Below, piece by piece: positions 2,016-45,132 of a stretch of 64,000 nt of DNA (its first letter is position 1; each line of letters opens with the position of its first letter). Both the position numbers and the translations under genes were made by a program. The notes beneath the pieces were generated by a model. It saw only the letters and a list, made by a program, of their open reading frames with translations, was not told the DNA's origin and ran no database searches. The stretch comes from a virus. The stretch is from positions 36,370 to 100,369 of IMG/VR virus record IMGVR_UViG_3300046698_000540, one strand, 5' to 3'.

Positions 2016-3259
2016 ACCACAATGGTAATAACCAGCGTGTCACCAGGAGACGTGGAGCCCACCTGGGTAACGTCCACCCCTACCAAAGTGCCGGCGGGCA
2101 TTCTCGGGAAAGGAAATTCCATGCCGTAGGGAGAATTCGTCACAGACGGATCCGTGCTCTCGGCCGCGTAGCTGTTCAAATTGCTGTCTGTGATCTCCAG
2201 CGTGTGAGGAGTGGGTGTGCCTGCCAGAACTGTCCAAGTTGTTCCATTGTCCAATGAAATGCGCACATCAATCAGAATCGGGGATCCTGTGGGGGCACTT
2301 AAAACCTCTGCGTACAGTACTCTCGGTGTGGCATCGAAATTCAACCGATATTGCGTGTCTGCATCCGTGGCTACAGCCAAAGTGCCGGGAACCCTGAACC
2401 GGATCTCTCCACCTGAGCAAGTTCGGATTCCCAAACGAGTCTGAGTGACCAGGCCGTAGTAGGGAAAATCAGAGTACCCCAACCTGTTGGCCAGGCCTGC
2501 CAGCACAAAGGCGACCATGGCATTGGGTTGAATGCAGTCGTAAATGGGGGCAATCTGATTGGTTAGATCGAAAGCGCCCGGCTGCGTCTTGAAAATGTGG
2601 TGCCCCAGCGTCAACTTGAAAAAGTTCTTGCCTATTGCGTGGGCATTCAAATAGGAACCGAACGTCGCCCGATCGGGGAGCCCTTCCCCTGGATACACCC
2701 TCTGAATATTCACCACCCCGCCTGTGATGGGGTCACCTGCACTTCCTGGACCTGTGATCTGAACCGCTTCGTATCGGCGCCAACCCGCCGGGTTGACTCC
2801 ATATGGCTGCCCGTAGCTGGGAACCAAGTCCTCATCGTTAAACACCAAAAAATCGCCGACGTGAAACTGCCAACCATCCGCGATTGCCTGTGCAGAGTAC
2901 GAAAATCCGAGATCGCTGATCGAAGCCGCTCCTACAGCATAGGGACTTTCCATACCTATCACGGCCGTTAAGGTGCCGAAATATTCCGTGGCCAGTTCAT
3001 CCACGAACACCAGCACCCCGTGGAATTCAGTGATGCCGGCCATATTGAGGTTGTCGAACACCGAGACGTCGGAAAACTCCAACTGGCCGTAGGTCACCAA
3101 CGCAGGCGTGAAGATGGGATAGCCGGGCGCATCTGTGTCCAACGTGTTATCTGGTCCCACCACCTGGATGGATTGACTGGCCGATTTTTGCCCTGGAATC
3201 CCCGTCAGGTTCACAGGAACCAACCAGTACCACCAAGTCTCCTTTGTATGGACTGCCAT
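2012..3259 (-). CDS. Minor tail protein
   Basis: Track ORF 2012..3319; likely start MAVHTKETW at 3259 after AGGA; beta-rich, C-terminal DVTQVGSTSPGDTLVITI typical of phage tail proteins. Confidence 0.65.
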   Translation of the reverse strand: MAVHTKETWWYWLVPVNLTGIPGQKSASQSIQVVGPDNTLDTDAPGYPIFTPALVTYGQLEFSDVSVFDNLNMAGITEFHGVLVFVDELATEYFGTLTAVIGMESPYAVGAASISDLGFSYSAQAIADGWQFHVGDFLVFNDEDLVPSYGQPYGVNPAGWRRYEAVQITGPGSAGDPITGGVVNIQRVYPGEGLPDRATFGSYLNAHAIGKNFFKLTLGHHIFKTQPGAFDLTNQIAPIYDCIQPNAMVAFVLAGLANRLGYSDFPYYGLVTQTRLGIRTCSGGEIRFRVPGTLAVATDADTQYRLNFDATPRVLYAEVLSAPTGSPILIDVRISLDNGTTWTVLAGTPTPHTLEITDSNLNSYAAESTDPSVTNSPYGMEFPFPRMPAGTLVGVDVTQVGSTSPGDTLVITIVV

Positions 3260-3267
3260 CTGATTTC

Positions 3268-6192
3268 CTACGTTGTGGTGCTCGAAGTCGTCGTGCTGGT
3301 CGTTGTCGTTTCCTCCCACGGATCCATGTATTGCGTGGCTGAAACCAGAGCTTGAAGCTGGCTAGGGTGCGGAAGCTGGTCCAACAACGAAATACTGGCG
3401 ATCTGATCGTACTTCAAATGAGGTTCGGCATTCGTGCTGTTGTACCCGCGTGTCACCGTGAGCGTTGCGGTACCATCGCCATGCCACACACAATTAGTGG
3501 CCAACACCTGTTCCGAGCCTACCTGATAAACACTTCGCGTTCCTATTCCTGTGACGTCGAAATCGTCCCAGGTGTTGTCCACCGTCCAAGCCGTCGCTGA
3601 AGCATCCACATCCGCGAGTAAAAATCCGCCGGCCGCCAGGTTGTTATCTGGAGTTCTGAAAATCTGAACCGCTTGCAGGAGTTTTTGCTTGCTCAGATCA
3701 CTATATGCCTGCCAGGAAAGGCGCACGCCCACACTGGGAAGCGAAACACAGGGATTTTGTGCCGCCCAAAGCAGAGCGGGCAATGGGGGATACACGAAAC
3801 CCTTTGATCCGCGGATGTACACATTGCGCGGAAATCTCGCCAGCTCAACGAAAGGATCCCCTGAAAGAATATCGTCGTACTCACTCGATCGCCAGGAGCG
3901 AACCTTGAAAGTCATGCCCCAATCGTCATTGAGCGCTTTTTCTTCGATCCTGATCCAATCTCCACCGTTAGGCATGAGCGTGTGGGCCAGGTACGTGATG
4001 TCGCCCACTTCCAGCTCATCCATGAGGAGAGTGCTGTCCAGCTCAACATTGCGAACTTGCGCCCATAATTGGGGACTGGTGCCACCCAATTCATGGCGCA
4101 GCATCCTGAGGCCGAGGCGCGCCGCCTGTTCCGTGAAGCAAGTTCCCACCAGGTTGTAGCTCTGCGCCATTTTGAACGGATAGCCATTCAATCCGATCAA
4201 CTTCTGGTAGTCGATCGAATAAACCGTCGCCATGTTCTGCTGGAAATCGAAGTCGTGATCGGCGAAGTTCAAATCCAGTTCATTATAGGAGGGCGTGGGA
4301 ATGTCCGGCTTCAAGCTGTTGTGCTTGACGTTGACGAACTCTTGAAAGGCCGGCCTTACTGTGGCATCCTGACATGCGCTGAATTGCCGGACCGCCAGTT
4401 TTCCATTGCGGAAAAATCGGAATCCGTGGCAATCCCTGAGCGCCGAATCGATCTGATCCATTGCCGGCGCCAGTTCACTGAACTGCCCAGCAAACTGGTA
4501 GCGCTGCACCGTGCTTCCGTCCAGGCCCGTGATATTGTCCGCGGCATAAGTCGCAAAATCTATGAAACTTTGAAGGTCTATGAACGTGGCGTGCGTTGCG
4601 ATCGACGTGTACTTGATGTTGAACGCTTCCAACACCATGTCCAGGATGATCCACACGGGATTGCCGCTTCCGCCGTAGATCCCGCCAACGCCATAAACTC
4701 TGCTGGTTGTGCTGCCGTACTGCCATACCCGGCGGCCTGCCGCCAGGTTGGCATAAACCGAAGGAGCCGAGCTGGCGCCTGTGCTTTTGCTGGCATCTGG
4801 GCTATTCACACCCGAGCTTGTGTCCTTCACCCGAGCAAAAAATCCGGCCCTGGAGGAAATATAAACCTGTGGGTCTCCTGGGGAATCTGTCTGAAGCATG
4901 TCCCCTTCGATCTGCGTCCACACATGAGGCTCGCCAATACGACCGGGGGATCTGCCTACTCCCTTATCGCAACCCGGCGCCGGCCAAGCCGGGGCGGGAA
5001 ATTCCCCGTTGGTAGGAAGCAGGCTGTTGACCTGGACATCTTGAATGGCCCCAATGTTCACATCTCCGCTGGCGGCCGGGGCATTTCCCAACACCCCTTC
5101 CCCAACGATGCACTCTACGGACACATAATCCGATTCTGGCCGCCATTCCAGAATCAAGGGCGTGCACGTGAATCCTGTAGCGGCGCCGGCATACACCAAG
5201 GGCACGGCCTGATCGAAGATCGTGGAAGTCTGAGAACTATAGGACGTGTAGGGGTCGCCGCCGCCAAGAAACCTGGTCAAAAAATTTCCGCCCAAATAGC
5301 CTGTGGCCCAAGAACAAACATACCTCTGACCACCATAGAACCGGGCCATTCCGCGGCCAAGGCAACCCGTAGCCGGCCCCACATAGCTCCAATATGTGGG
5401 CGAAGAATCCGGCTGGTGCTCGTTATTGGTCACCGAAGCTTGCCAAATTCCGCCATTCTGGTAAACTTGGCTTCCTGCCTGATACACCACGGAATGAAAC
5501 CATGAGGAAGGTCCGAACGTCTTGTCGCACGTCGTTAGATAGGGCCGGCCTTTATACCCCTCTGTGGAACTTATGTCGGGTCCGAAGTCGTCAGGTACGC
5601 TTGCCTCTCCGAGAACTCCCAATATTTCAGGGATGGCCACACGCGGCCCTGCGCCTGCGCCTGTGTACCCGAAGCCGGAATAGGGGCAGTACAGCCCGTC
5701 GTCGAACTGAAGATCGCAGTTCCTGCTGAATCGCCGCCGCGGAAGTGGCAAGGTCAAATCGAATAGACCGTCCTTACAGGAGAGCGAAAATGTCTGCTGA
5801 TCGTAGGGCGTTTTGTCTATGAAGCCGATCCACTCGATGCGCGTGGCGTCCGCGAGGGAACCTCCACCGGTCACCACGTCGGGCATGTAGACTTTGAACA
5901 CAACCACGCCGCGTTGGAACATGTGATCGCGCGCCGCCAATTCTAGAGTGCGATCGACGTTGGACAAAGTGAACGTGGCCGTGGAACTGGATCCTGTGAT
6001 ATTGGAACTGATGGGCCCCCACTTCACCAGGCGCGGCAAATAAAGATGCCCGCCAATACCCGTCAGATCGACCCGGCGATCGCTCATGTACCCTGTGGCG
6101 CCGTCCACCAGGGTTACCTCCAGCAGAGGTACAGGCTCCACCGTGCGCCCGCGGACGGCATTCCAATACGCGGTGCTGGGAAACGGGTTCAT
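3268..6192 (-). CDS. Tail tip/hub (host-specificity-type) protein with Thr/Ser C-terminal tail
   Basis: 974 aa, downstream of tape measure; Cys motifs (CDLQFDDGLYCPY, CDKT) like minor tail L/hub proteins; ends TTTTSTTTSSTTT. Confidence 0.75.
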   Translation of the reverse strand: MNPFPSTAYWNAVRGRTVEPVPLLEVTLVDGATGYMSDRRVDLTGIGGHLYLPRLVKWGPISSNITGSSSTATFTLSNVDRTLELAARDHMFQRGVVVFKVYMPDVVTGGGSLADATRIEWIGFIDKTPYDQQTFSLSCKDGLFDLTLPLPRRRFSRNCDLQFDDGLYCPYSGFGYTGAGAGPRVAIPEILGVLGEASVPDDFGPDISSTEGYKGRPYLTTCDKTFGPSSWFHSVVYQAGSQVYQNGGIWQASVTNNEHQPDSSPTYWSYVGPATGCLGRGMARFYGGQRYVCSWATGYLGGNFLTRFLGGGDPYTSYSSQTSTIFDQAVPLVYAGAATGFTCTPLILEWRPESDYVSVECIVGEGVLGNAPAASGDVNIGAIQDVQVNSLLPTNGEFPAPAWPAPGCDKGVGRSPGRIGEPHVWTQIEGDMLQTDSPGDPQVYISSRAGFFARVKDTSSGVNSPDASKSTGASSAPSVYANLAAGRRVWQYGSTTSRVYGVGGIYGGSGNPVWIILDMVLEAFNIKYTSIATHATFIDLQSFIDFATYAADNITGLDGSTVQRYQFAGQFSELAPAMDQIDSALRDCHGFRFFRNGKLAVRQFSACQDATVRPAFQEFVNVKHNSLKPDIPTPSYNELDLNFADHDFDFQQNMATVYSIDYQKLIGLNGYPFKMAQSYNLVGTCFTEQAARLGLRMLRHELGGTSPQLWAQVRNVELDSTLLMDELEVGDITYLAHTLMPNGGDWIRIEEKALNDDWGMTFKVRSWRSSEYDDILSGDPFVELARFPRNVYIRGSKGFVYPPLPALLWAAQNPCVSLPSVGVRLSWQAYSDLSKQKLLQAVQIFRTPDNNLAAGGFLLADVDASATAWTVDNTWDDFDVTGIGTRSVYQVGSEQVLATNCVWHGDGTATLTVTRGYNSTNAEPHLKYDQIASISLLDQLPHPSQLQALVSATQYMDPWEETTTTSTTTSSTTT

Positions 6193-6380
6193 TGCACGGA
6201 AACCTTCAGGTCGCAGAAATGAGGCGCACAGGACTTACAAAAATAATATCTGTGAAGCTCTTCACAGCATGGTAACTTTAGCATGTAGCATACCTCTGCA
6301 ACATTGTTGCAAGGTTGCATGTTCTCTCGGGTGTCCCCACAAGTTGCCTCGCATATTTGACCAGCAGGAACTTCCATCAT
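6189..6380 (-). CDS. Small Cys-rich hypothetical protein
   Basis: 63 aa, overlaps both neighbours by 4 bp, fills the gap in the tail operon. Confidence 0.45.
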   Translation of the reverse strand: MMEVPAGQICEATCGDTRENMQPCNNVAEVCYMLKLPCCEELHRYYFCKSCAPHFCDLKVSVQ

Positions 6381-6853
6381 CCGGGAAAACCTCCAATTTT
6401 CAACTGAGCTTTTCGCAACTTGTACTCGAATAGCTCCACGCTCATCTCATCCTCGTCGAACAACGCGACGTAGCGCCCGAGCGTGGCGTGTGAGGGGTGC
6501 GTCAACCTGGTGGTGGGATCGTCGCGGTAGGGGTTCGGATACGTGGACCAAGGAACCGGATCGTAGTACCAGAAGGAAACCGCCCGGCCCTGGTGGTCGT
6601 TGAAAAATTTCCAGAGAATGCCCGACCGGCTGGCGATGATATCCGTCAACTCCCCCTTCAGGACGTCGAAGCCTATCTCGAACGTGATGAGCGGCGATCC
6701 TCCAATCACGAAGCGCTGCTCGAGAATCGGAGAGAACTGGTGAACCTTGTTTTCCCATTTCCGGCCACGCTTGAAATTGTAGTCGGGATCGAACGGAAAA
6801 ACCCCGACAGGAGTGTATGCTGGAACGGGCTCGCCGAACAAAAAATCGCTCAT
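6377..6853 (-). CDS. Distal-tail-like protein (DUF2460-like)
   Basis: Likely start MSDFLFGE at 6853 (ATGA overlap); motif FFNDHQGRAVSFWYYDP resembles lambda gpM/DUF2460-type proteins. Confidence 0.65.
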   Translation of the reverse strand: MSDFLFGEPVPAYTPVGVFPFDPDYNFKRGRKWENKVHQFSPILEQRFVIGGSPLITFEIGFDVLKGELTDIIASRSGILWKFFNDHQGRAVSFWYYDPVPWSTYPNPYRDDPTTRLTHPSHATLGRYVALFDEDEMSVELFEYKLRKAQLKIGGFPG

Positions 6854-36214: not shown

Positions 36215-36433
36215 TTAGGCCAGCTCCTCTTCGTTGCAGGCTTCATATGCGCCTGGAAGGGGAACGATCGGTTCCAGGCCTTTGGCAATTCTGATTGGGT
36301 TGAATCTGTTTACGCAATTCTCACAGATCGGCTCCCTCACGTCATTGACGCGAACCGAGGGAACCTTCATCGGGTTGAACGTGAACGGTTGGCCGCACCC
36401 GATGCACGGCGCCGTTCCCAAGGCGTACCCCAT
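36215..36433 (-). CDS. Small zinc-finger-like protein
   Basis: CIGC...CENC. Confidence 0.55.
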   Translation of the reverse strand: MGYALGTAPCIGCGQPFTFNPMKVPSVRVNDVREPICENCVNRFNPIRIAKGLEPIVPLPGAYEACNEEELA

Positions 36434-36809: not shown

Positions 36810-37895
36810 TCACACTTTGTAATCGGAGCGCACCGACACCGACGCCCCCGCGCGGCTGAACTCGACCGAGCACTGGTTGTACGTGCCCGACTCGTACCAG
36901 CTCGTAATCTTGGGGTACGCCTCGCTGTCTCCGACCTTCAGGTAGCCCTTCGCGCGCCACGGCGGAACATGGGTCGCGGCGAAGCGCAGCGGCACAGTCC
37001 GGTAGTGGATCCGCCGCTCCGCGATGCCCTGCGGAGTCCCCGGCGCCGGCTGTGCGAAATTGAGCTGGATGAAATCCCGCCCCCACTCCGGCTCCGCGCC
37101 GGTTCCCCGGAGCTTGTGCCGCGCGAGAGCGCCGGCCAGATACTCGGCCAGCTTCCAGGTCTGTTCCTTAATGGGCATGCCGGGAAACCACTTGGCGTAC
37201 TGGTGCCGGTAGAAGTCCCTCTGCTCTTGGGGAATCAAGCCCTGCCAACCGATGTCGGTCAGCTCGCTTGGACCTGGCTGGATGCCGTAGAGATCCGTCC
37301 GCTCCAGATACAACTGGAAGACCGGCGCCAACGTGCCCGCTTGGAAGTCGTACTCCTTCGGGTCCATCAACGCGCTCTCCAGCACCGGACGCAGGAAGCG
37401 GAAGTTCAGCACGTCCACCAGGGCGAGGAAATCGCGAACATACGTCTCGCTCGACCGGAGCGCCGCGTCCCCTTCCGACTTGAAGAGGTACTTGCCGCCC
37501 ACGTCCTCGATCCGCATGTTCATCCGCAGGCCCGGCTCGTAATAGCGCCGCACGCGTCCCTGGAGGCACTGGAGAGTCTTCAACCCCATCAGCTCCGCCA
37601 CATCCACGCTCTCGCCATTGATAGGCTTCTTGCTGCCCCACGGCACCAGGAACGGGATCGGAGACCCCTCCTCGATATGCTTCCGCAGGACCGCTCGAAT
37701 CGCCACCAGGCTTTCCGGATTGGGCGCCGGTCCGAACCTCGACTGGTTCGTTCCGATGATCTCGGCTGCCACCAGCTCCAACGTCGTCGCCTTGTCACCG
37801 CGGTTCGACCCTGGAAACTCGCGCGCCAGCGCCCGCTGGATCACCTCTCCATAAGGATTGTCCAGCTCACTTACGTGAATCTTCAAATCATTCAT
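36810..37895 (-). CDS. Possible divergent isonitrile-synthase-like (PvcA/Dit1) protein
   Basis: Start MNDLKI after ribozyme RBS; IPFLVPWGSKK..DVAEL..YEPG..IED and HVPPW loosely match the family pattern. Confidence 0.45.
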   Translation of the reverse strand: MNDLKIHVSELDNPYGEVIQRALAREFPGSNRGDKATTLELVAAEIIGTNQSRFGPAPNPESLVAIRAVLRKHIEEGSPIPFLVPWGSKKPINGESVDVAELMGLKTLQCLQGRVRRYYEPGLRMNMRIEDVGGKYLFKSEGDAALRSSETYVRDFLALVDVLNFRFLRPVLESALMDPKEYDFQAGTLAPVFQLYLERTDLYGIQPGPSELTDIGWQGLIPQEQRDFYRHQYAKWFPGMPIKEQTWKLAEYLAGALARHKLRGTGAEPEWGRDFIQLNFAQPAPGTPQGIAERRIHYRTVPLRFAATHVPPWRAKGYLKVGDSEAYPKITSWYESGTYNQCSVEFSRAGASVSVRSDYKV

Positions 37896-37926
37896 CTGTT
37901 TTGTCCCGGCCTTTCTCCGGGGGCTA

Positions 37927-37980
37927 TCGCCTACACGTCTCGTGTTTCGACTCGGAGCCTCCGAATCCTCTTCAGGGCGA
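37927..37980 (-). ncRNA. Type I hammerhead ribozyme A
   Basis: UCGCC CUGAAGA G GAUUCGG-AGGCU-CCGAGUC GAAA CACG-AGA-CGUG UA^GGCGA. Confidence 0.85.
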
Positions 37981-38016
37981 AAAATTCCTGGCCGGGGCAT
38001 GGCGTCCCCGGCCAGG
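37981..38016 (-). terminator. Terminator-like hairpin upstream of ribozyme A
   Basis: 11-bp stem CCUGGCCGGGG/CCCCGGCCAGG then AAUUUUU. Confidence 0.55.
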
Positions 38017-38042
38017 CGGCGAAAGCTCACGCGTGCAGCCAA

Positions 38043-38930
38043 CTACGCCGCGGACGTGGGAGCGGAGGGAAACAAACTCTGTTGCTGTTTGGCGGGTTTG
38101 GGAGCATTCGGAATCGCCTTCCGGGATACTACCGCCTTGCGGTTCTCCTCAAAATCAGAGAGCTCGCCGGGTGTCGGCTTGCGCACCATCGCCAGCCGGC
38201 ATTTGTAAGTGCTGTCCGTGTATTCTCCGCTGTTGCTCCGGATCAGCTCCACAGTCTCCACGGCATACGCCGGATCCTCGCCCTCCTCCAGGTAGTCGGG
38301 ATTATAGGTCACCACTTTGAAGTGGCCGTCCTTCCCGATCTCCTGGACTTGCGCGAGAACCACACCGGGCGCCCAATCCCCGTCCCCCGTAACTTTGGGG
38401 TACACGAGCGCGGCCACGTCGCCTACCTTGAGGGCGGCTTTGTCCGGCGAACGCTGCGCCGAACTGGACCGGATGCCTTCGAGAGCATCCCGCTGCTCCT
38501 TATTGGGCCGTTTCACTATCACTACGCGCTCATCGTTGGCATCGATGATCTCAGTGCTGACCCCCCGGCCATTTTCGCGCCGCTTGGTCAACCTCTCCGC
38601 CACTTTCAAAGAGCCTGCACGGGGCGGTTTGTTCGGGAACAGGAACTTGATTGACGCATCGGCGCCGTCCTGAGAAACGGTCACCACTTCCGCGCCATAC
38701 ACGCCGGGAATGCGCCCCGGCTCCATCGCGTACGCGACCGTAATCAGATCGCCCGCCCGTAGCCCTTTCAGCGTTGCCAGCGCCGGCAGAGTATCTGGTG
38801 GCGGAGTGGAATCCGTCGCCACGGGAACCACCTTGGGCGGCTCCTTTTTCTTGATTACCTTCTTCCCTTCCAGAGCGCCCACCAGTTTTGTGGCGAACTC
38901 CCCTTCCGGTTTTTTCTTTGCCATGTTCAT
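38043..38930 (-). CDS. Hypothetical protein
   Basis: Start MNMAKKK after GGAAAGGA hairpin. Confidence 0.65.
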   Translation of the reverse strand: MNMAKKKPEGEFATKLVGALEGKKVIKKKEPPKVVPVATDSTPPPDTLPALATLKGLRAGDLITVAYAMEPGRIPGVYGAEVVTVSQDGADASIKFLFPNKPPRAGSLKVAERLTKRRENGRGVSTEIIDANDERVVIVKRPNKEQRDALEGIRSSSAQRSPDKAALKVGDVAALVYPKVTGDGDWAPGVVLAQVQEIGKDGHFKVVTYNPDYLEEGEDPAYAVETVELIRSNSGEYTDSTYKCRLAMVRKPTPGELSDFEENRKAVVSRKAIPNAPKPAKQQQSLFPSAPTSAA

Positions 38931-38966
38931 CAGGGGTCCTTTCCACCCCAGACTGCTGCCTTCGAA

Positions 38967-39054
38967 TCGCAGCCGTCTCTTGGGCGCGCTCGACGTGTTC
39001 CTCGCCGAGAGACTTTCGTCCGGGATGGGTCCCGCGCCCAAGACGCGGCTGCGA
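38967..39054 (-). ncRNA. Unknown multi-stem structured RNA element
   Basis: Long closing stem UCGCAGCCG..UCUUGGGCGCG / CGCGCCCAAGA..CGGCUGCGA enclosing three hairpins, one with a GAAA tetraloop. Confidence 0.55.
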
Positions 39055-39071
39055 ACCGCGCCACTACCTGC

Positions 39072-39341
39072 CTATTCCGGGCGATTCATCAGCGATCGCA
39101 GCTTGTCTGCAATCCGCCCGAACAGGTTCTTTTGTTTCCGTTGCTGCCGCTCGACCTGTTGTTGAAACCAGGGCGGCCTGTGTAGAACCGAAGTCACCTT
39201 CACTTCCTTCGGCCCTTTCTTTGTGGGGACTTCCACCGTCGCCGTGCTACGACCGGCGCCGCGGTGATGAACGGGCGCTGCCGCCCCCGCTCCCAAATTG
39301 TATCTGTTGTCTTTTCCAATCGCGAAAAAATGATGCGCCAT
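39072..39341 (-). CDS. Small basic protein
   Basis: Start MAHHFF after GAGGAGG. Confidence 0.55.
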   Translation of the reverse strand: MAHHFFAIGKDNRYNLGAGAAAPVHHRGAGRSTATVEVPTKKGPKEVKVTSVLHRPPWFQQQVERQQRKQKNLFGRIADKLRSLMNRPE

Positions 39342-40072
39342 TACACCTCCTCGAATAACCCTGCCTGACCTCCCCACGGCGCAACCTGCCGCTGTGTGGG
39401 CCTTCCTTCGTTGTAACCTCCGATTCGAGCCTTGCGCAGCCTCTCGTATTCCTCGGCTTCCTCCCGGACCCCGAGCCGGATCGCTATGCCCGATCTCTCG
39501 TTGTCCGTATCCCACCAGCCGCCAAGGCCGTCCCTTGCCATCAACACGTCTTCCGGCTCCGCCTCTTCATACTCAAAGCGGATCTTCAGCACGTTCTGCT
39601 CCGGAATTTCCAAGACCCGGCCGATATATTCGCCGGCATCATCACCTGGCCAAGGATACATGGCCACAACGATGTCTCCGAACGTGAATGGCCCTTCCTT
39701 CCGGACCGGGAAGCACTCGCGGAGGCACATAGGGCAGTAACCCTTCCCCGCGAAATACTCCAGCACCTTGACGAACCAAGGCTTTCCGCAGATATCGCAC
39801 TCTGCCGATACCTGGTTGACTTGGACAGGCGGCAACTCAATGACGGGAACCTCACCGTTCAGGTGCTGTTCCGTTCTGAGCCACAATCTCTGCCCGTGGC
39901 CGATCCCGACGCCCACGCCGTGCTCCTTAAAATGCCCCAGGCACATATTCCGCCAAGGGCCGGCCTTTGTGATGCCGTCGTACCGCGCCAACAGCCGCTG
40001 GTCGCGGTCCTTCTTGTGCTTGCAAAAATCGCAAGGGGGAAGTTTCTCTACTGTTCTTTCTTCACCGTGCAT
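39341..40072 (-). CDS. Zinc-finger domain protein
   Basis: CDFC...GPWRNMCLGHF...GVGIGHGQ, second CDIC..CPMC. Confidence 0.65.
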   Translation of the reverse strand: MHGEERTVEKLPPCDFCKHKKDRDQRLLARYDGITKAGPWRNMCLGHFKEHGVGVGIGHGQRLWLRTEQHLNGEVPVIELPPVQVNQVSAECDICGKPWFVKVLEYFAGKGYCPMCLRECFPVRKEGPFTFGDIVVAMYPWPGDDAGEYIGRVLEIPEQNVLKIRFEYEEAEPEDVLMARDGLGGWWDTDNERSGIAIRLGVREEAEEYERLRKARIGGYNEGRPTQRQVAPWGGQAGLFEEV

Positions 40073-40230
40073 GGTGGTACCTCCTCCAAGGCGACCCGAC
40101 TACGCCGCCAGATAATGCAGGAATACCCTGTCGAAAGGGCCGTATCTTTGGCGGCTTTTCTGTTTGAATACGGACCATACAACCGATCCGTTCCTTTCAC
40201 TTCCACCTCATACTCAATAGAATTGGCCAT
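40048..40230 (-). CDS. Small hypothetical protein
   Basis: Likely start MANSIEY. Confidence 0.5.
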   Translation of the reverse strand: MANSIEYEVEVKGTDRLYGPYSNRKAAKDTALSTGYSCIIWRRSRVALEEVPPCTVKKEQ

Positions 40231-40237
40231 GCCGCCC

Positions 40238-40420
40238 CTACTTTCTTCTCTTCGCCAGGCGCTGGCACTTCCCACAGGTTACCCGCTTCGGGTCCGACGT
40301 GGAAGGAAGCCTGGACTTATCTGTATCCAACAGCTCAGCCTTTGCGTAGCACGCCGGAAAGCGCATGCCTGCATTGATAAACAACCTTTGGTCCTGCAAA
40401 TGAATTTTTGCCATGTTCAC
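40238..40420 (-). CDS. Small hypothetical protein
   Basis: Follows RBS hairpin of ribozyme C. Confidence 0.6.
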   Translation of the reverse strand: MNMAKIHLQDQRLFINAGMRFPACYAKAELLDTDKSRLPSTSDPKRVTCGKCQRLAKRRK

Positions 40421-40441
40421 CGCGTCCTTTCTCCGCGAGGC

Positions 40442-40506
40442 TTTCGCCTACCTCCCTGTGCGGGAGGTTTCGAGCCGGCGCCCACCGGCCCATCTTCAGG
40501 ACGAAA
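40442..40506 (-). ncRNA. Type I hammerhead ribozyme C
   Basis: UUUCGUC CUGAAGA UG GGCCGG-UGGGCG-CCGGCU C GAAA CCUCCC-GCACA-GGGAGG UA^GGCGAAA. Confidence 0.88.
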
Positions 40507-40834
40507 TTTCCGCTCTTGTGTCTCCCAAGATCGTGATTGAGCTGTGGGTTTCCTTCCATGCAACCGCAGCCACATGAAAGCTCTTCAGCCTATCGATCTG
40601 TTGCGTGACCCAGAACGCTTGCGTTTCCAATCCTACTTGCATATACATGGTCAGCAGGATATGCGTTCCTTTCAACACCATCCCCCGATCCGCGAACCTG
40701 CCTTCTACCGCCATGGGGGGCCGCCCGGTGTGCATGATGCTGTAAACACTCACGACCCCGGCGTACCGCAAATACTCGGTCACCACGGCGCCCGGATCGG
40801 GCACCAGCATGGTGATAGCCACTCTTGTTGCCAT
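40496..40834 (-). CDS. Hypothetical protein
   Basis: Between ribozymes D and C; stop codon lies in the CUGA core of C. Confidence 0.6.
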   Translation of the reverse strand: MATRVAITMLVPDPGAVVTEYLRYAGVVSVYSIMHTGRPPMAVEGRFADRGMVLKGTHILLTMYMQVGLETQAFWVTQQIDRLKSFHVAAVAWKETHSSITILGDTRAEISS

Positions 40835-40862
40835 TTTTCAAAGGCTCCTTTCCAGCCTAGCT

Positions 40863-40929
40863 TTCGCCTATGGCGGGCCTCCCGGCCGGCCATTTCGACC
40901 TGGAGCCACCAGGTTCTCTTCGGGGCGAA
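40863..40929 (-). ncRNA. Type I hammerhead ribozyme D (CCGAAGA core)
   Basis: UUCGCC CCGAAGA GA ACCUGG-UGGCU-CCAGGU CGAAA UGGC..GCCA UA^GGCGAA. Confidence 0.8.
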
Positions 40930-41274
40930 CTACTCCGTTTCTTCCCATGGCTTTTCGCCGGGCTCCTGGTACAGGGCCAGGCCACAAGAATTATGCAAAG
41001 CTTCCCACAACCGGTCGCCGCGGGCCAGCAACTCCTCCTTGGGTTGCAACTTCTTGTGATTCCCAACAAAGCCTTGTTCCTCGGGAGTCGTTTGATCCAT
41101 TGCATCTCCTGCCTGTTCCAGCAGCTCCGCCATGTAGGTTTGCGCGTCATCCCATTCTGCGAGAGACCGGGCCGCCATCATCACCAATGACAGGCGCGCG
41201 ATCGATCTAGCCCAGGTTCTCAGCTTTACAAGCGTGATTTGGGCATTCGTCAATTCTGTTGGTATTGTTGCCAT
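40930..41274 (-). CDS. Hypothetical protein
   Basis: Between ribozymes E and D. Confidence 0.65.
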   Translation of the reverse strand: MATIPTELTNAQITLVKLRTWARSIARLSLVMMAARSLAEWDDAQTYMAELLEQAGDAMDQTTPEEQGFVGNHKKLQPKEELLARGDRLWEALHNSCGLALYQEPGEKPWEETE

Positions 41275-41300
41275 TTCAAAGCTCCTTTCCAGCTTGGCTT

Positions 41301-41359
41301 TCGCCTACCGGCTGTAGAGGCCGGTTTCATCCGGGCGCCGCCCGAACTCTTCAGGACGA
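41301..41359 (-). ncRNA. Type I hammerhead ribozyme E
   Basis: UCGUC CUGAAGA G UUCGGG-CGGCG-CCCGGA U GAAA CCGGC-CUCUACA-GCCGG UA^GGCGA. Confidence 0.88.
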
Positions 41360-41827
41360 TTACAAGGTGTCCGCAGCGTTTCCTTCAGGATCATCTCCAG
41401 CGAAAAACGCTCTCTGGCCCTCCAGTTTCGCCAGAGTCTTCCGCTGTTCCTCCACTTCGATCCCAACACCCTGCTTGCCGTACAGCCAAGCAATCACCAG
41501 TTCCAACGATGCGTCCTCGTAACACATCTCCTGGTGGTTCACCGGCACGGCATAGAACCTGCTGGCCCCCACTTTGTACACCATGCCGATCCCCTGCTCG
41601 CCTGGATGTAGACGCACCTCGTAGCAGGGCGCCAGTAGCAGGTTTATGCCGTGATACCTGGCGGGGATTGCCAACAGGCGATTTTGCATCTGCTTTTCCG
41701 CCCGTGCCAGTTCCTCGGATTCCAACTGCGCTTCGTTTCGTTTTGCCATTGCTTTCTCACTCCTGTCCAAATATGCCAGCAGATCGGTCCGATTCCGTTC
41801 GCAATGATCTTCAAATTCGACCATCAT
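41360..41827 (-). CDS. Hypothetical protein
   Basis: Between ribozymes F and E. Confidence 0.65.
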   Translation of the reverse strand: MMVEFEDHCERNRTDLLAYLDRSEKAMAKRNEAQLESEELARAEKQMQNRLLAIPARYHGINLLLAPCYEVRLHPGEQGIGMVYKVGASRFYAVPVNHQEMCYEDASLELVIAWLYGKQGVGIEVEEQRKTLAKLEGQRAFFAGDDPEGNAADTL

Positions 41828-41858
41828 AATCTTTTAGCCGGTCCTTTCCACCGGAGCT

Positions 41859-41918
41859 TTCGCCGACCGCCTTGTCTGGCGGTTTCGTCCCTGCGCTACA
41901 GGAACTCATCGGGGCGAA
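41859..41918 (-). ncRNA. Type I hammerhead ribozyme F (CCGAUGA core)
   Basis: UUCGCC CCGAUGA G UUCCUG-UAGCG-CAGGGA C GAAA CCGCC-AGACAA-GGCGG UC^GGCGAA. Confidence 0.82.
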
Positions 41919-42109
41919 TTTCTTTCCTCTTCATTTTCCCGGAGAGCCTTGTCGAATTCACTATTGCGTTTAGCTCTCTCGGAGGTAGCTTCTCGCCAAA
42001 CATGCCTGTCAGTTTGCGAGGCATTTGGATGCTCAAGACTATCCAGGATTGCAAACGCAATAACGAAGACAAAAAGCCCAAGCCAGCAGAGTTTCATTTC
42101 ACGTTTCAT
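41906..42109 (-). CDS. Small membrane-anchored protein
   Basis: MKREMKLCWLGLFVFVIAFAIL; stop codon lies in the core of ribozyme F. Confidence 0.6.
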   Translation of the reverse strand: MKREMKLCWLGLFVFVIAFAILDSLEHPNASQTDRHVWREATSERAKRNSEFDKALRENEEERNSPR

Positions 42110-42132
42110 AAGAGCTCCTTTCAAGCCCAGCT

Positions 42133-42194
42133 TTCGCCTATCCCCCTGAGCGGGGGATTTCGGCCGGAAGCCATCCGGCCATCATCGGGGCGAA
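42133..42194 (-). ncRNA. Type I hammerhead ribozyme G (CCGAUGA core)
   Basis: UUCGCC CCGAUGA U GGCCGGA-UGGCU-UCCGGCC GAAA UCCCCC-GCUCA-GGGGGA UA^GGCGAA. Confidence 0.82.
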
Positions 42195-42581
42195 CTACCA
42201 TTCCAGGTTGTTGAGCGCCGCCAGTACCATAACCTCGACCGGGGTCAACGCCACCACAAAGACGTCCACCACGATAGCGCCCTGGAGCGCTTCGTGATGC
42301 TGGCCGCCGATCGCGTGTTCCTTCAGCGGTTCCACCAGATCCTCCAGGCGGATTTTTTCCTGGACGGGAAGACGATTCCTGGTATCCTTCACCAGCGCCT
42401 GACCCGTGCCCAATCCCAATCGGCAGCCCAGGCCGTCGAAATGCACCTGGCACAGGTTTGCCCAGCACATGCCGCCCCATCCGGGGAGCTTCGCGCTGTA
42501 CAACGCCGGCGTCTGTTGATCCTCCGCCCTGCACACATCGCAGTCCGGACGCTCTCTCACCATCACTTTATTGTTTGCCAT
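42195..42581 (-). CDS. Zinc-finger domain protein
   Basis: CDVC...WANLCQVHF...LGLGTGQ, same domain as 39341..40072. Confidence 0.65.
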   Translation of the reverse strand: MANNKVMVRERPDCDVCRAEDQQTPALYSAKLPGWGGMCWANLCQVHFDGLGCRLGLGTGQALVKDTRNRLPVQEKIRLEDLVEPLKEHAIGGQHHEALQGAIVVDVFVVALTPVEVMVLAALNNLEW

Positions 42582-42614
42582 GTTCGTTTGATTCGGCTCC
42601 TTTCCAGCCGGGCT

Positions 42615-42681
42615 TTCGCCTATGCCCCCTACTTCTTGGGGGCATTTCGCTTCCGCGCCACGGAAGCCTCTTCAGGGCGAA
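42615..42681 (-). ncRNA. Type I hammerhead ribozyme H
   Basis: UUCGCC CUGAAGA G GCUUCCG-UGGCG-CGGAAGC GAAA UGCCCCC-8nt-GGGGGCA UA^GGCGAA. Confidence 0.9.
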
Positions 42682-42778
42682 GATTCTCTCTGCGCGCCCA
42701 AAAAAATCCGGCCACGCAGGAGCACTACCTGGGCACCACACCGGCATGTGGCCGATGTCCCGCATACGCAGGGCCGGA

Positions 42779-43009
42779 TCATGCCGCGTTCTCGAAATGG
42801 AACCGCTCGCTGCGGCTGTAGCCCGGCCGCGGATTCCTGACCGTCCACGAGCCGTCCGCCTTCTCGCGCAACATCGTGCGCAGCTTCGAAGGCCCTGACT
42901 GAACCCCAATGCTCAGGGCCCCGGTCGTAGTGGCGAAGGTGTTGAACTCCACTCCCATCGCGCGCAACATGTTCCGCAGAATTCTGTTCTGTCTCTGTAG
43001 TCTTTTCAT
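42779..43009 (-). CDS. Hypothetical protein
   Basis: Between ribozymes I and H. Confidence 0.6.
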   Translation of the reverse strand: MKRLQRQNRILRNMLRAMGVEFNTFATTTGALSIGVQSGPSKLRTMLREKADGSWTVRNPRPGYSRSERFHFENAA

Positions 43010-43043
43010 ATTCGTGTTTGTCTCATCCTTTCCATGAGGGCTT

Positions 43044-43111
43044 TCGCCTAACGGCCCGCCTCCTTTTCGGGCCGTTTTCGGGGAGTTGCCGACTCCCCAT
43101 CTTCAGGGCGA
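43044..43111 (-). ncRNA. Type I hammerhead ribozyme I
   Basis: UCGCC CUGAAGA U GGGGAGU-CGGCA-ACUCCCC GAAA ACGGCCCG-9nt-CGGGCCGU UA^GGCGA. Confidence 0.88.
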
Positions 43112-43891
43112 TTACGCGGCGGCCGACTGCTTCTCCGTGGCCGCTTCCCACTTCGCGTACACTTCCTCCCACGCGGCGTCCGCGCCAATTTCCTTGGCCT
43201 TCACCCGCGCTTCCTCCACCAGCTTCACGTGCGCCGGTTTCATCGACGACTTCCAGGTCGCCTCCGCCTTCTTCCGATCGCCCGCGGCCGCCAGCAACCC
43301 TTCCAGGTCCTTGGCGCCGTAGAACTCGATCGCGCCGTTGCCCAGCGGATCCGTGCACTCGACCGCGATCGGCGTCTTCTTCGCCGTCGTGCGCAGCCCA
43401 ACCACCGTGAACTCGTACGGGTACTGGGGATCCAGGTCGTCGTCCGGGTCGGGCACGTGATACTTACGCCCGAGCCATTCCGGATTCACACCCTCGAAGT
43501 CCTTCGCCCGCTCGATCCACAGCGTCTGCATCGAGGGAACCGGCGCGCCGGCTTCGTTCCGGTACACCAGGTCCACGGCCACATACGGCGCCGTAACCGC
43601 GAAGTCCTCGACCGCCACCTGACGGCTGCCGAGCGCCTGCTCCACGATCTTCTCGAAGTCTCCGTCCGCGATTCCCAGGTCCACCGAGAACCCAAGACTC
43701 ACGTACCCGGAGTCCGTCGCGTCGTCCGATTCCTCGACCTTCACCGAGACTTTCGCCCGCGCTACCAGAGTTTCCAGTTTTGCGAGGATCTCGGATCGAA
43801 TGGCGGCCGTCGTCGCTTCGTCGAACTTCACCGGCACGAATTGCGATTTTTCCGCGACTGCAACTGCTTCTTTTCTGTTCTTGTTTGCCAT
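43112..43891 (-). CDS. Hypothetical acidic protein
   Basis: 259 aa between ribozymes J and I; strongly G/C-ending codons. Confidence 0.7.
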   Translation of the reverse strand: MANKNRKEAVAVAEKSQFVPVKFDEATTAAIRSEILAKLETLVARAKVSVKVEESDDATDSGYVSLGFSVDLGIADGDFEKIVEQALGSRQVAVEDFAVTAPYVAVDLVYRNEAGAPVPSMQTLWIERAKDFEGVNPEWLGRKYHVPDPDDDLDPQYPYEFTVVGLRTTAKKTPIAVECTDPLGNGAIEFYGAKDLEGLLAAAGDRKKAEATWKSSMKPAHVKLVEEARVKAKEIGADAAWEEVYAKWEAATEKQSAAA

Positions 43892-43924
43892 AACGTTTGT
43901 AAACCCGTCCTTTCCACGGGGGCT

Positions 43925-43981
43925 TTCGCCGACGCCTCACGGCGTTTCGACCTGGCGCCACCAGGCCTTCATCGGGGCGAA
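43925..43981 (-). ncRNA. Type I hammerhead ribozyme J (CCGAUGA core)
   Basis: UUCGCC CCGAUGA A GGCCUGG-UGGCG-CCAGGUC GAAA CGCC-GUGA-GGCG UC^GGCGAA. Confidence 0.82.
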
Positions 43982-44383
43982 CTACTCTACGCTTGTGTGA
44001 ATCCGGTTGCACCGGCAGCCTGGGGAATCGCAGAACTCGCTTTCCGCGTCCGCTTCGCTCACCAGGTCCTTGAACTGAAGCGGCTCCGATTCCAGATCCT
44101 CGTCGTACACCGAGGCCACCTGGGCCATGGACGTTCTTGCATCCTCGGCCGCGCCTGGCAGCGAGTCGTACCCTGCGTCGGTCAGTTCGTTGATCCTGGT
44201 TTCGATCAACCCGTTTGGCCCCACCGGATCCATTTCTTCGGAAGTGCATCCCGTTTCCGGATCCGTCTCTTCGCGCAAAAAGTCCGCGGCCAAGACCTCA
44301 TCCTGCATTGCCTCCCGGCAGTCCTCGCAGGGCTCTTCCAAATGCTGGCAATCTTCGCAACGAACTACTATTCCTTTTGCCAT
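43982..44383 (-). CDS. Acidic Cys-motif protein
   Basis: Start MAKGIV; CEDC..CEDC and C-terminal Cys cluster; between ribozymes K and J. Confidence 0.65.
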   Translation of the reverse strand: MAKGIVVRCEDCQHLEEPCEDCREAMQDEVLAADFLREETDPETGCTSEEMDPVGPNGLIETRINELTDAGYDSLPGAAEDARTSMAQVASVYDEDLESEPLQFKDLVSEADAESEFCDSPGCRCNRIHTSVE

Positions 44384-44414
44384 ATCGTTCAACCAGGTCC
44401 TTTCCACCTGAGCT

Positions 44415-44480
44415 TTCGCCTATTCATGCCGTCTGGACATAAATTTCGGCCGGGCGCTGCCCAGCCATCTTCAGGACGAA
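44415..44480 (-). ncRNA. Type I hammerhead ribozyme K
   Basis: UUCGUC CUGAAGA U GGCUGGG-CAGCG-CCCGGCC GAAA UUUAUGUC-CAGAC-GGCAUGAA UA^GGCGAA. Confidence 0.88.
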
Positions 44481-45038
44481 TTGTATTTTCCCACCACACT
44501 TCCCGCGGGGTTATGAGGCCCGCGGGTTCGCTTTGAATTCGACTCTCCAGTTTGCTTCCCAGTCCGAACGTTGCCCAAGTTGGGCGCCCCCGTCAGGGGA
44601 CCGTGTTACACCAGGCCAATTCGCCGCATCGTAAATCCCAGGGGCAAGCTCGTTCTGCCCAAAAATGTCACGACGATCTTCGCCGGGGACGTTTGCGGGG
44701 ACATGGTGATTCGACCGGGTAGCGAATGTCATCTGAGAAAGGAAAGGTATTAAAATGACATCCGTCGCCGGAGCCGTTTTCCGTATTCAATTGTCAAATA
44801 TCGCTTGGGTGCCTTCCCCGATCGGGAGCGGTTGGAGGGATTGTGCTGTGGCGGGAGTGGCCAGGGCTTTTGAGTCGTCGCGGCTTTTCACCAGCACCGA
44901 AATGCTGTGCACCTTGATAGGTAACGCCGAAACTTCCACCTCACCGAAGTGAGGACCGTTTCTGCCACCCGGTAGCACCGCCCCCGAAAGGGTCGGCCCC
45001 GGTTTGGTTCCCCCTTGTGAGGGGAGGGGTATGATTTA

Positions 45039-45067
45039 AGTATAGTATATCGTTGGGTATTTGTAAA
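45039..45067 (-). promoter_or_regulatory. Strong sigma70-like early promoter
   Basis: TTTACA-17 bp-TATACT; near-identical copy at 49759..49787. Confidence 0.85.
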
Positions 45068-45081
45068 GGGGTGTAAGTGTA

Positions 45082-45132
45082 TGAAAACAAAGGAGATGTT
45101 ATTATTGGTTGTAACCTATTGAAAACAAAGGA
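45082..45132. repeat. 13-bp direct repeat TGAAAACAAAGGA x2 upstream of the promoter
   Basis: Copies at 45082..45094 and 45120..45132 in an AT-rich patch. Confidence 0.7.

Follow-up and report, generated by a model that had tools for sequence, protein, structure and literature searches.

The last 64 kb of the virus record IMGVR_UViG_3300046698_000540 (positions 36,370 to 100,369; 64,000 nt, in the following the window) contain an array of ten well-formed type I hammerhead ribozymes, which lie between early genes and are each fused to a hairpin that holds the predicted ribosome-binding site of the next gene. The ten units share one design and are found on the minus strand between positions 44481 and 37903, spanning 6.6 kb on the same strand as the genes; nearly all genes of the window are encoded on this strand. 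The record itself is linear, 100,369 bp long and approximately 80% complete, and we refer to it as a phage on the grounds that it is listed as viral and carries a portal gene of the SPP1 type. Sequence anatomy, covariation and conservation in relatives establish the array, and we infer that it self-cleaves and processes its transcript. Specifically, we consider it likely that the ribozymes are transcribed together with the early genes, cut the polycistronic RNA and give its products standard 5′ untranslated regions (UTRs).

Ten hammerhead units of one design

An initial annotation of the window had proposed ten hammerheads of type I on the minus strand, each with a cut site. A combined regular-expression and folding pass recovered exactly ten units, each where it had been placed, and the ten computed cut sites proved identical to those listed. 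A covariance model built on these units (R1) found no further ones in the 100-kb record. From 5′ to 3′, each unit starts with the 5′ strand of stem I, (U)UCGYC, and the core CYGAWGA, in most cases followed by an extra base; then come the stem II hairpin (7-8 bp), GAAA, the stem III hairpin (4-9 bp), a single unpaired A or C (H) and, as the 3′ strand of stem I, GGCGA(A/U). When folded, every one of the ten units displays an open stem I and loop-closed stems II and III, as expected for the proposed type I topology, in which the ribozyme body stays with the 5′ product after the cut.

The units are given here with their position, predicted cut, cleavage triplet and score in R1, i.e. against a model built on the ten units themselves; all are on the minus strand. 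Six have the core CUGAAGA: unit 1 (44392-44481, cut 44421|44420, AUA, 84.6 bits), unit 3 (43020-43113, cut 43049|43048, UUA, 81.2 bits), unit 4 (42592-42682, cut 42621|42620, AUA, 89.9 bits), unit 7 (41277-41361, cut 41306|41305, GUA, 82.8 bits), unit 9 (40419-40506, cut 40449|40448, GUA, 79.1 bits) and unit 10 (37903-37982, cut 37932|37931, GUA, 80.4 bits), the last with GGCGAU as the 3′ strand of stem I. The core reads CCGAUGA in unit 2 (43902-43982, cut 43931|43930, GUC, 85.8 bits), unit 5 (42110-42195, cut 42139|42138, AUA, 92.8 bits) and unit 6 (41836-41919, cut 41865|41864, GUC, 83.7 bits), and CCGAAGA in unit 8 (40840-40930, cut 40869|40868, AUA, 85.4 bits). Positions C3, G5, A6, G8, A9, G12, A13 and A14, the A15.1-U16.1 pair and H17 are correct in all ten, so that the core from C3 through H17 is complete in the six units with U at position 4, and units 2, 5, 6 and 8 deviate solely by a C at this position. 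The triplets AUA and GUA are known from active natural hammerheads (PMC1636495).

Folded alone, every unit adopts the three-way junction as its lowest-energy structure. In the alignment of the ten copies, 97% of the cells are paired, as opposed to 75% in shuffles and 45% when the partner is slid by one column. Stems II and III had been described as variable yet paired, and they do bear changes on both sides of their pairs: six of seven pairs in stem II and two of the three scored in stem III differ on both sides among the copies, and the array holds 14 such pairs in total. Stem I, by contrast, does not vary among the ten copies, unlike the drifting stems II and III, and is consequently uninformative for covariation within the array. 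A strict descriptor yields five matches in the window and none in 100 dinucleotide shuffles. The same pairing is seen in a wider set of 103 distinct related units, drawn from contigs of viruses, genomes and metagenomes, in which 91% of the cells are paired (71% in shuffles).

In addition to the three stems, an RGC(U) sequence in loop II can form a pseudoknot of 3-4 bp with the AGCY tail located just 3′ of stem I. This pairing is intact in all ten units, its variable R-Y pair being G-C in six, A-U in two and G-U in two; across the 103 distinct related units, the same pair is G-C in 72, A-U in 13, G-U in 13 and something else in four, and a hand count of 41 units yielded no A-C. As the search model does not include this pairing, the alignment is not biased towards it. 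The covarying pseudoknot is computational evidence for a tertiary contact, and such pseudoknots are a known route by which natural hammerheads achieve fast cleavage at low Mg2+ (PMC3088659).

A 5-bp hairpin with the constant loop GGAAAGG follows directly 3′ of AGCY in every unit. All five pairs of its stem change on both sides among the ten copies, the predicted ribosome-binding site consists of the loop and the next base, and the AUG is located 29-39 nt from the cut in each unit. An eleventh hairpin of this kind, which lacks a hammerhead, precedes ORF13 (38931-38974, minus strand; a partial model match of 16.6 bits, and a fold). All units share the strand of the genes, each placed after a stop codon and ahead of the ribosome site that follows. 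Seven of nine upstream stops adjoin the ribozyme or lie inside it, and five of them precede stem I by 0-1 nt. In unit 6, U7-G8-A9 of the core serves as the stop codon of ORF5, and in unit 9, U4-G5-A6 of the core as that of ORF8.

Predicted processing of the early transcript

The cuts would divide the array into fragments of 490, 882, 428, 482, 274, 559, 437, 420 and 2517 nt, of which the first eight contain one open reading frame (ORF) each and the 2.5-kb fragment contains five; sizes and ORF counts are those of the initial annotation. Upstream of the first unit lies a sigma-70-like promoter, TTTACA-17-TATACT (45039-45067, minus strand), with a consensus score of 10/12 and the best minus-strand match in the region. 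It had already been named as the origin of the transcript and gains support from a distant relative, the virus contig G001, in which the -35 box, the spacer, the -10 box and the start region are conserved almost base for base at 40-60% protein identity. Two copies of the 13-nt direct repeat TCCTTTGTTTTCA, 48 nt apart, lie on the minus strand immediately upstream of the -35 box (45120-45132 and 45072-45084) and may represent an operator or an activator site.

The promoter and unit 1 are separated by a structured leader of about 0.55 kb (44482-45031, minus strand; fold z-score -2.4) with no convincing gene, which is also found in L161 (1366-2015). A cut at unit 1 would free it as an RNA of about 610 nt. 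One of its hairpins (approximately 44764-44722, minus strand) exposes CCUUUCCUUUC in an 18-nt loop; this hairpin is kept in a strain of the phage, L262, and in G001, here with a compensatory change from U-A to C-G. As CCUUUCCUUUC is the complement of GGAAAGG, it matches all eleven ribosome-site hairpin loops, and, judging from this complementarity, the leader could be a discrete regulatory RNA that acts in trans on the whole set of cassettes.

In the mechanism that we propose, transcription would start at the conserved promoter (45067-45039) and proceed through the early genes. Each unit would fold once its last strand, GGCGAA, exits the polymerase, and would cut co-transcriptionally after its NUH triplet. 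Besides the leader RNA and the message from downstream, the expected products are eight mRNAs with a single gene and one with five. All mRNAs released in this way would begin with a 5′-OH and GGCGAAAGCY, followed by the 5-bp hairpin that presents GGAAAGG, and would end with the folded body of the next ribozyme and a 2′,3′-cyclic phosphate. As a result, every early gene would, whatever its neighbors, possess the same standard 5′ UTR and structured ends, with a presumed effect on mRNA stability and translation. The array would thus correspond, as a natural system, to the synthetic insulator RiboJ.

Several observations weigh against this proposal. The initial annotation had assumed a single unbroken transcript from one promoter, of which the promoter stands and the unbroken transcript is overstated: a terminator-like hairpin with a U run (37987-38016, minus strand; 11 bp, 10 of them G-C) precedes unit 10, its U run entering stem I of that unit, so that not all units need share one transcript, and an intrinsic terminator closes the leader of G001 and separates it from the array. 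Read-through past the hairpin before unit 10 may be partial. A further terminator candidate, before unit 4 (approximately 42790-42695), was dropped, as the fold places its U run inside the hairpin. The search with Rfam hammerhead models, which had been named as a check, did not return the units either: RF00163, RF00008, RF02275-7 and RF03152 gave no match at the gathering threshold in the window, no unit was matched when RF00163 and RF02275 were searched individually, and the sole weak match in a search to E<=10 was that of unit 6 to RAGATH-1-hammerhead (RF03152; 23.6 bits, E=2, cut-off 56.3). We read this as a limit of the models; with our own model, public contigs yield over 100 units of this kind. 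On the level of the core, eight of the ten units have an extra base between A9 and stem II, and four carry C4, an exchange reported to lower in vitro activity to a considerable extent (PMC3088659, discussion). Finally, when 80 nt of flanking sequence are included on each side, the 6-bp stem I is lost from the lowest-energy fold in all ten units; stems II and III are kept, and a GGC-GAAA-GCY mini-hairpin replaces stem I beside the ribosome-site hairpin. We regard the latter result as a caveat that marks stem I as weak. The same mini-hairpin hints, as an inference from the folds, that the released 5′ end might refold and thereby favor product release. The ten bases in question would then serve stem I, the pseudoknot and the product hairpin, which could explain why stem I is invariant.

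Some of these observations can be cited for a different reading, according to which the folds derive from hammerheads and act as largely non-cleaving punctuation, be it as 3′-end or RNase barriers, as translational insulators or, through their constant stem I and loop, as protein-binding sites. C4 and the extra base after A9 would then be signs of relaxed catalysis, and C4 is indeed frequent, being found in four of six units in G001, in about 20-26% of related units and on at least five unrelated contigs; the lack of Rfam scores and the loss of stem I in the flanked folds point in the same direction. We nevertheless consider this reading very unlikely. A hairpin pair would not need the other catalytic bases, yet these are invariant in the ten units, and G5, A6, G8, G12, A13 and A14 are each present in 114-115 of 115 related units (alignment A8, comprising units from the window, IMG/VR, GTDB and metagenome loci). 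Moreover, the covarying pseudoknot is a known device for fast cleavage at low Mg2+, the U4C exchange suffices in vivo for viroid infectivity (PMC3088659), and the C4 units are unchanged between the window and its sister strain; thus, unit 2 is identical in L262 and unit 8 in L214. C4 showed no association with the base that occupies position 7. As four of the ten units carry the U4C exchange, reported to be less active in vitro, these may cut more slowly, making cleavage graded and not uniform.

The genes that the cuts would separate are all encoded on the minus strand. ORF1 (43982-44383, 133 aa) and ORF2 (43112-43891, 259 aa) have no family match. ORF3 (42779-43009, 76 aa) has a 41% identical homologue behind a hammerhead in G001, ORF4 (42195-42581, 128 aa) contains an N-terminal Cys-rich domain (phrog_23287), and ORF5 (41906-42109, 67 aa) has a hydrophobic N-terminus. 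They are followed by ORF6 (41360-41827, 155 aa), ORF7 (40930-41274, 114 aa) and ORF8 (40496-40834, 112 aa). The five-ORF block without an internal hammerhead (38043-40414) comprises ORF9 (40414-40238), ORF10 (40230-40048), ORF11 (40072-39341; phrog_23287), which has a 60% identical homologue in G001, ORF12 (39341-39072) and ORF13 (38930-38043), whose homologue in G001 is 52% identical. ORF14 (36810-37895, 361 aa) is the first gene after unit 10, and downstream of it the genes are tightly packed and free of hammerheads. The N-terminal Cys-rich domain shared by ORF4 and ORF11 identifies them as a duplicated early-gene module.

Two further elements of this region deserve mention. The 107 nt before ORF13 (38961-39067, minus strand) form a very stable structure (z -3.66) flanked by GGCAG direct repeats, an insertion that is absent from L214, a contig of 97% identity, and that may represent a small RNA element, either mobile or inserted. 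We rejected it as a second ribozyme or dead hammerhead, since it has neither a CUGANGA core nor U16.1 and matches no Rfam family. At the end of ORF12 (39086-39096, minus strand), CUGAUGA is shortly followed by GGAAUAGGCAG (GAAAUAGGCAG in L214). This motif resembles a collapsed hammerhead remnant that has lost stems II and III and is probably a relic or a coincidence.

Relatives and exchange of cassettes between strains

A search of related phages for the array, as had been suggested, retrieved it at two evolutionary distances. The distant relative G001, a virus contig of 27.7 kb, has six units at 2472-6761, again on the coding strand and with spacings of 344-1917 nt; its proteins are 41-60% identical to ORF3, ORF11 and ORF13. 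The stems of corresponding units share no sequence with those of the window and yet pair, and the ribosome-site hairpin is kept in G001 and not in other lineages of the subclass. Two metagenome contigs of JGI sample Ga0182027, L262 with seven units and L214 with three, represent a strain that is 95-98% identical to the window. The differences within shared units are all structure-neutral; they affect N7 or the extra base after A9, turn G-U into G-C, or are compensatory, and they also include a 32-nt insertion in loop III. A search for related loci with ORF11 alone returned nothing, and with a two-sequence alignment it returned G001 only.

The units belong to a larger group. More than 100 further ones are found in virus, genome (several phyla) and metagenome contigs, mostly singly or in groups of two to four; as most of these contigs are short, array sizes outside the window are underestimated. 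Contigs labelled Spirochaetia/Treponema, Bryobacterales, Chloroflexi and Rhizobiaceae pass the covariance model. Judged by its sequence signature (stem I UCGYC/GGCGA, an AAGCY tail and RGC in loop II), this type I subclass is widespread in prokaryotic viruses. The relatives were fetched with DNA patterns, which partly forces the invariance of stem I across contigs. A first pattern, based on the ribosome-site hairpin, returned four chance loci, none with a model match; a second one returned more than 113 loci, mostly by chance, with two real ones among the 80 loci tested.

Between the strains, the array differs by whole cassettes. After unit 4, L262 has an extra cassette of 740 nt that is absent from the window (L262 approximately 1444-2184, on its minus strand). 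It consists of a new hairpin, a 216-aa ORF and a chimeric ribozyme, HHx. The ORF has a signal-peptide-like N-terminus and no counterpart in the window, and its stop codon is formed by U4-G5-A6 of the next ribozyme. HHx resembles unit 8 in stem II and unit 3 in stem III, a mosaic that, as far as sequence can tell, suggests recombination inside the conserved core segments. Conversely, the entire 274-nt ORF5 cassette is present in the window and absent from L262. Both differences are bounded on each side by GGCGAAAGCC or GGCGAAAGCU; the boundaries thus coincide with GGCGAAAGCY, the first bases of the predicted cleavage product, and the unit of DNA exchange therefore equals the predicted RNA cleavage fragment. 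In comparison to L214, unit 10 and its hairpin are a precise insertion, and L214 itself has a unit before a gene that is without one in the window.

These differences raise the question whether the units primarily mark exchangeable cassettes. The invariant junction would then be what is mainly selected, as it would let phages gain, lose and shuffle modules composed of a ribosome-site hairpin, an ORF and the body of the following ribozyme; cleavage would be possible and not the main point. Modules would recombine at GGCGAAAGCY, which all of them share, or, in a more speculative version, be exchanged as RNA: since stem I is identical in all units, an excised RNA could re-pair its own two ends and then be circularized or ligated. 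The bounded cassettes, the chimera HHx and the gain or loss of single units between strains speak for this idea, as does the comparison with G001, where the gene content between units differs from that of the window while the units persist, and the contrast of an invariant stem I with drifting stems II and III. However, any repeat of 10-16 nt would produce the same boundaries without this being the purpose of the units, and the core and the covarying stems are conserved far beyond the needs of a recombination site. The invariance of stem I across contigs is also less telling than it seems, as it is partly a product of the search pattern. We therefore regard it as unlikely that cassette exchange is what the units are chiefly for.

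The most straightforward explanation of the boundaries themselves is that recombination took place within the 10-16 nt that they share; an RNA-level route is a long shot. Circular or spliced products were sought by Perreault et al., who saw none (PMC3088659), and the 80%-complete record contains neither an RtcB (PF01139) nor an RNA ligase (PF09414) gene. Pairing of the tail of one unit with loop II of the next would be compatible with the sequence at all junctions of the window and is consequently uninformative there; in the L043 array, it is mismatched (C opposite A) at one of two junctions, whereas the pairing in cis is perfect. Both the missing ligases and the preference of the pseudoknot for cis over trans disfavor circularization. 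It is a bold idea, to which we give little credence, that the RNA piece between neighboring ribozymes (GGCGAAAGCY ... NUH) is a unit of genetic exchange within and between phage genomes, with a stem I that is invariant so that any end fits any ribozyme, be it through ligation or circularization of RNA or through recombination directed at the junction; the possible role of the leader as a trans regulator is related to it.

Significance and comparison with known systems

The purpose of bacterial and phage hammerheads was still listed as open in a 2019 review (PMC6765202). The array under study offers a clean test bed in this respect: a single operon contains ten units of the same subclass, natural U4 and C4 variants are found next to each other, the promoter is conserved, all predicted products have the same standard 5′ UTR, and both a sister strain and a distant relative are available for comparison. 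Here, it can be asked whether processing by ribozymes decouples neighboring early genes in their stability and translation, whether the U4C units are deliberately slow cutters, and whether the cassette-like mosaicism seen in early regions of phages is driven by ribozyme junctions. Beyond the locus, more than 100 distinct units in public contigs belong to a widespread hammerhead subclass that escapes current Rfam models, and synthetic biology could take up the unit as it stands as a natural insulator part.

The closest known systems are the prophage clusters of Perreault et al. (2011; PMC3088659), who described multiple hammerheads that often flank individual genes or short gene blocks. Arrays of two, from Clostridium scindens and Azorhizobium caulinodans, cleave, and the triple array at ardA of Agrobacterium tumefaciens cleaves in vitro and also in E. 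coli. Based on these clusters, it was already proposed that a long phage transcript might be processed into single-gene mRNAs, and the novelty that the initial annotation had attributed to the layout was accordingly overstated. The window array follows the same pattern, with several coding-strand hammerheads that flank single phage genes or short blocks, and with a pseudoknot in the stem I-stem II region. It differs in its size, as it has ten units, one before each of the first nine cassettes, compared to the two or three tested units of those clusters; literature searches yielded no published account of phage hammerhead arrays larger than those of Perreault et al. Further differences are the invariant stem I, the fused and covarying ribosome-site hairpin, the U4C exchange in four of ten units, and strains that differ by whole cassettes cut at the boundary of the cleavage product. 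A mapped transcript 5′ end is available for HHphage of the haloviruses HF1 and HF2, where it lies within 3 nt of the cleavage site (PMC3088659, discussion). In contrast to the units described here, HHphage is a single unit with a variant core in an archaeal virus and depends on high salt.

On the level of the fold, the units share the catalytic core and the three-stem junction with the Rfam families RAGATH-1 (RF03152) and Hammerhead_1 (RF00163), although their subclass is effectively invisible to these models. With the hammerheads of viroids and retrozymes, they share the hammerhead-bounded design and the 5′-OH and 2′,3′-cyclic phosphate ends, the latter being predictions in our case; U4C and the AUA and GUA variants also occur in viroids. 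Those hammerheads, however, yield circular RNAs, whereas the products of the window array would be protein-coding phage mRNAs from a record in which RtcB and RNA ligase genes were looked for and not found.

With respect to its presumed mode of working, though not to its family, the array is comparable to RiboJ, a synthetic insulator composed of a hammerhead and a 23-nt hairpin that normalizes 5′ UTRs (PMC7536230). In both cases, the hammerhead would remove the upstream RNA, and a downstream hairpin would standardize the 5′ UTR before the ribosome site. Unlike RiboJ, the units described here are natural, of type I with a pseudoknot, present the ribosome site in the hairpin loop and are repeated ten times in a single operon. 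Taken together, the array belongs to a kind that is already known and is a large and very regular member of it; what is new is an array of ten units that are each fused to a ribosome-site hairpin, and the gain and loss of cassettes between strains that are bounded on both sides by GGCGAAAGCY.

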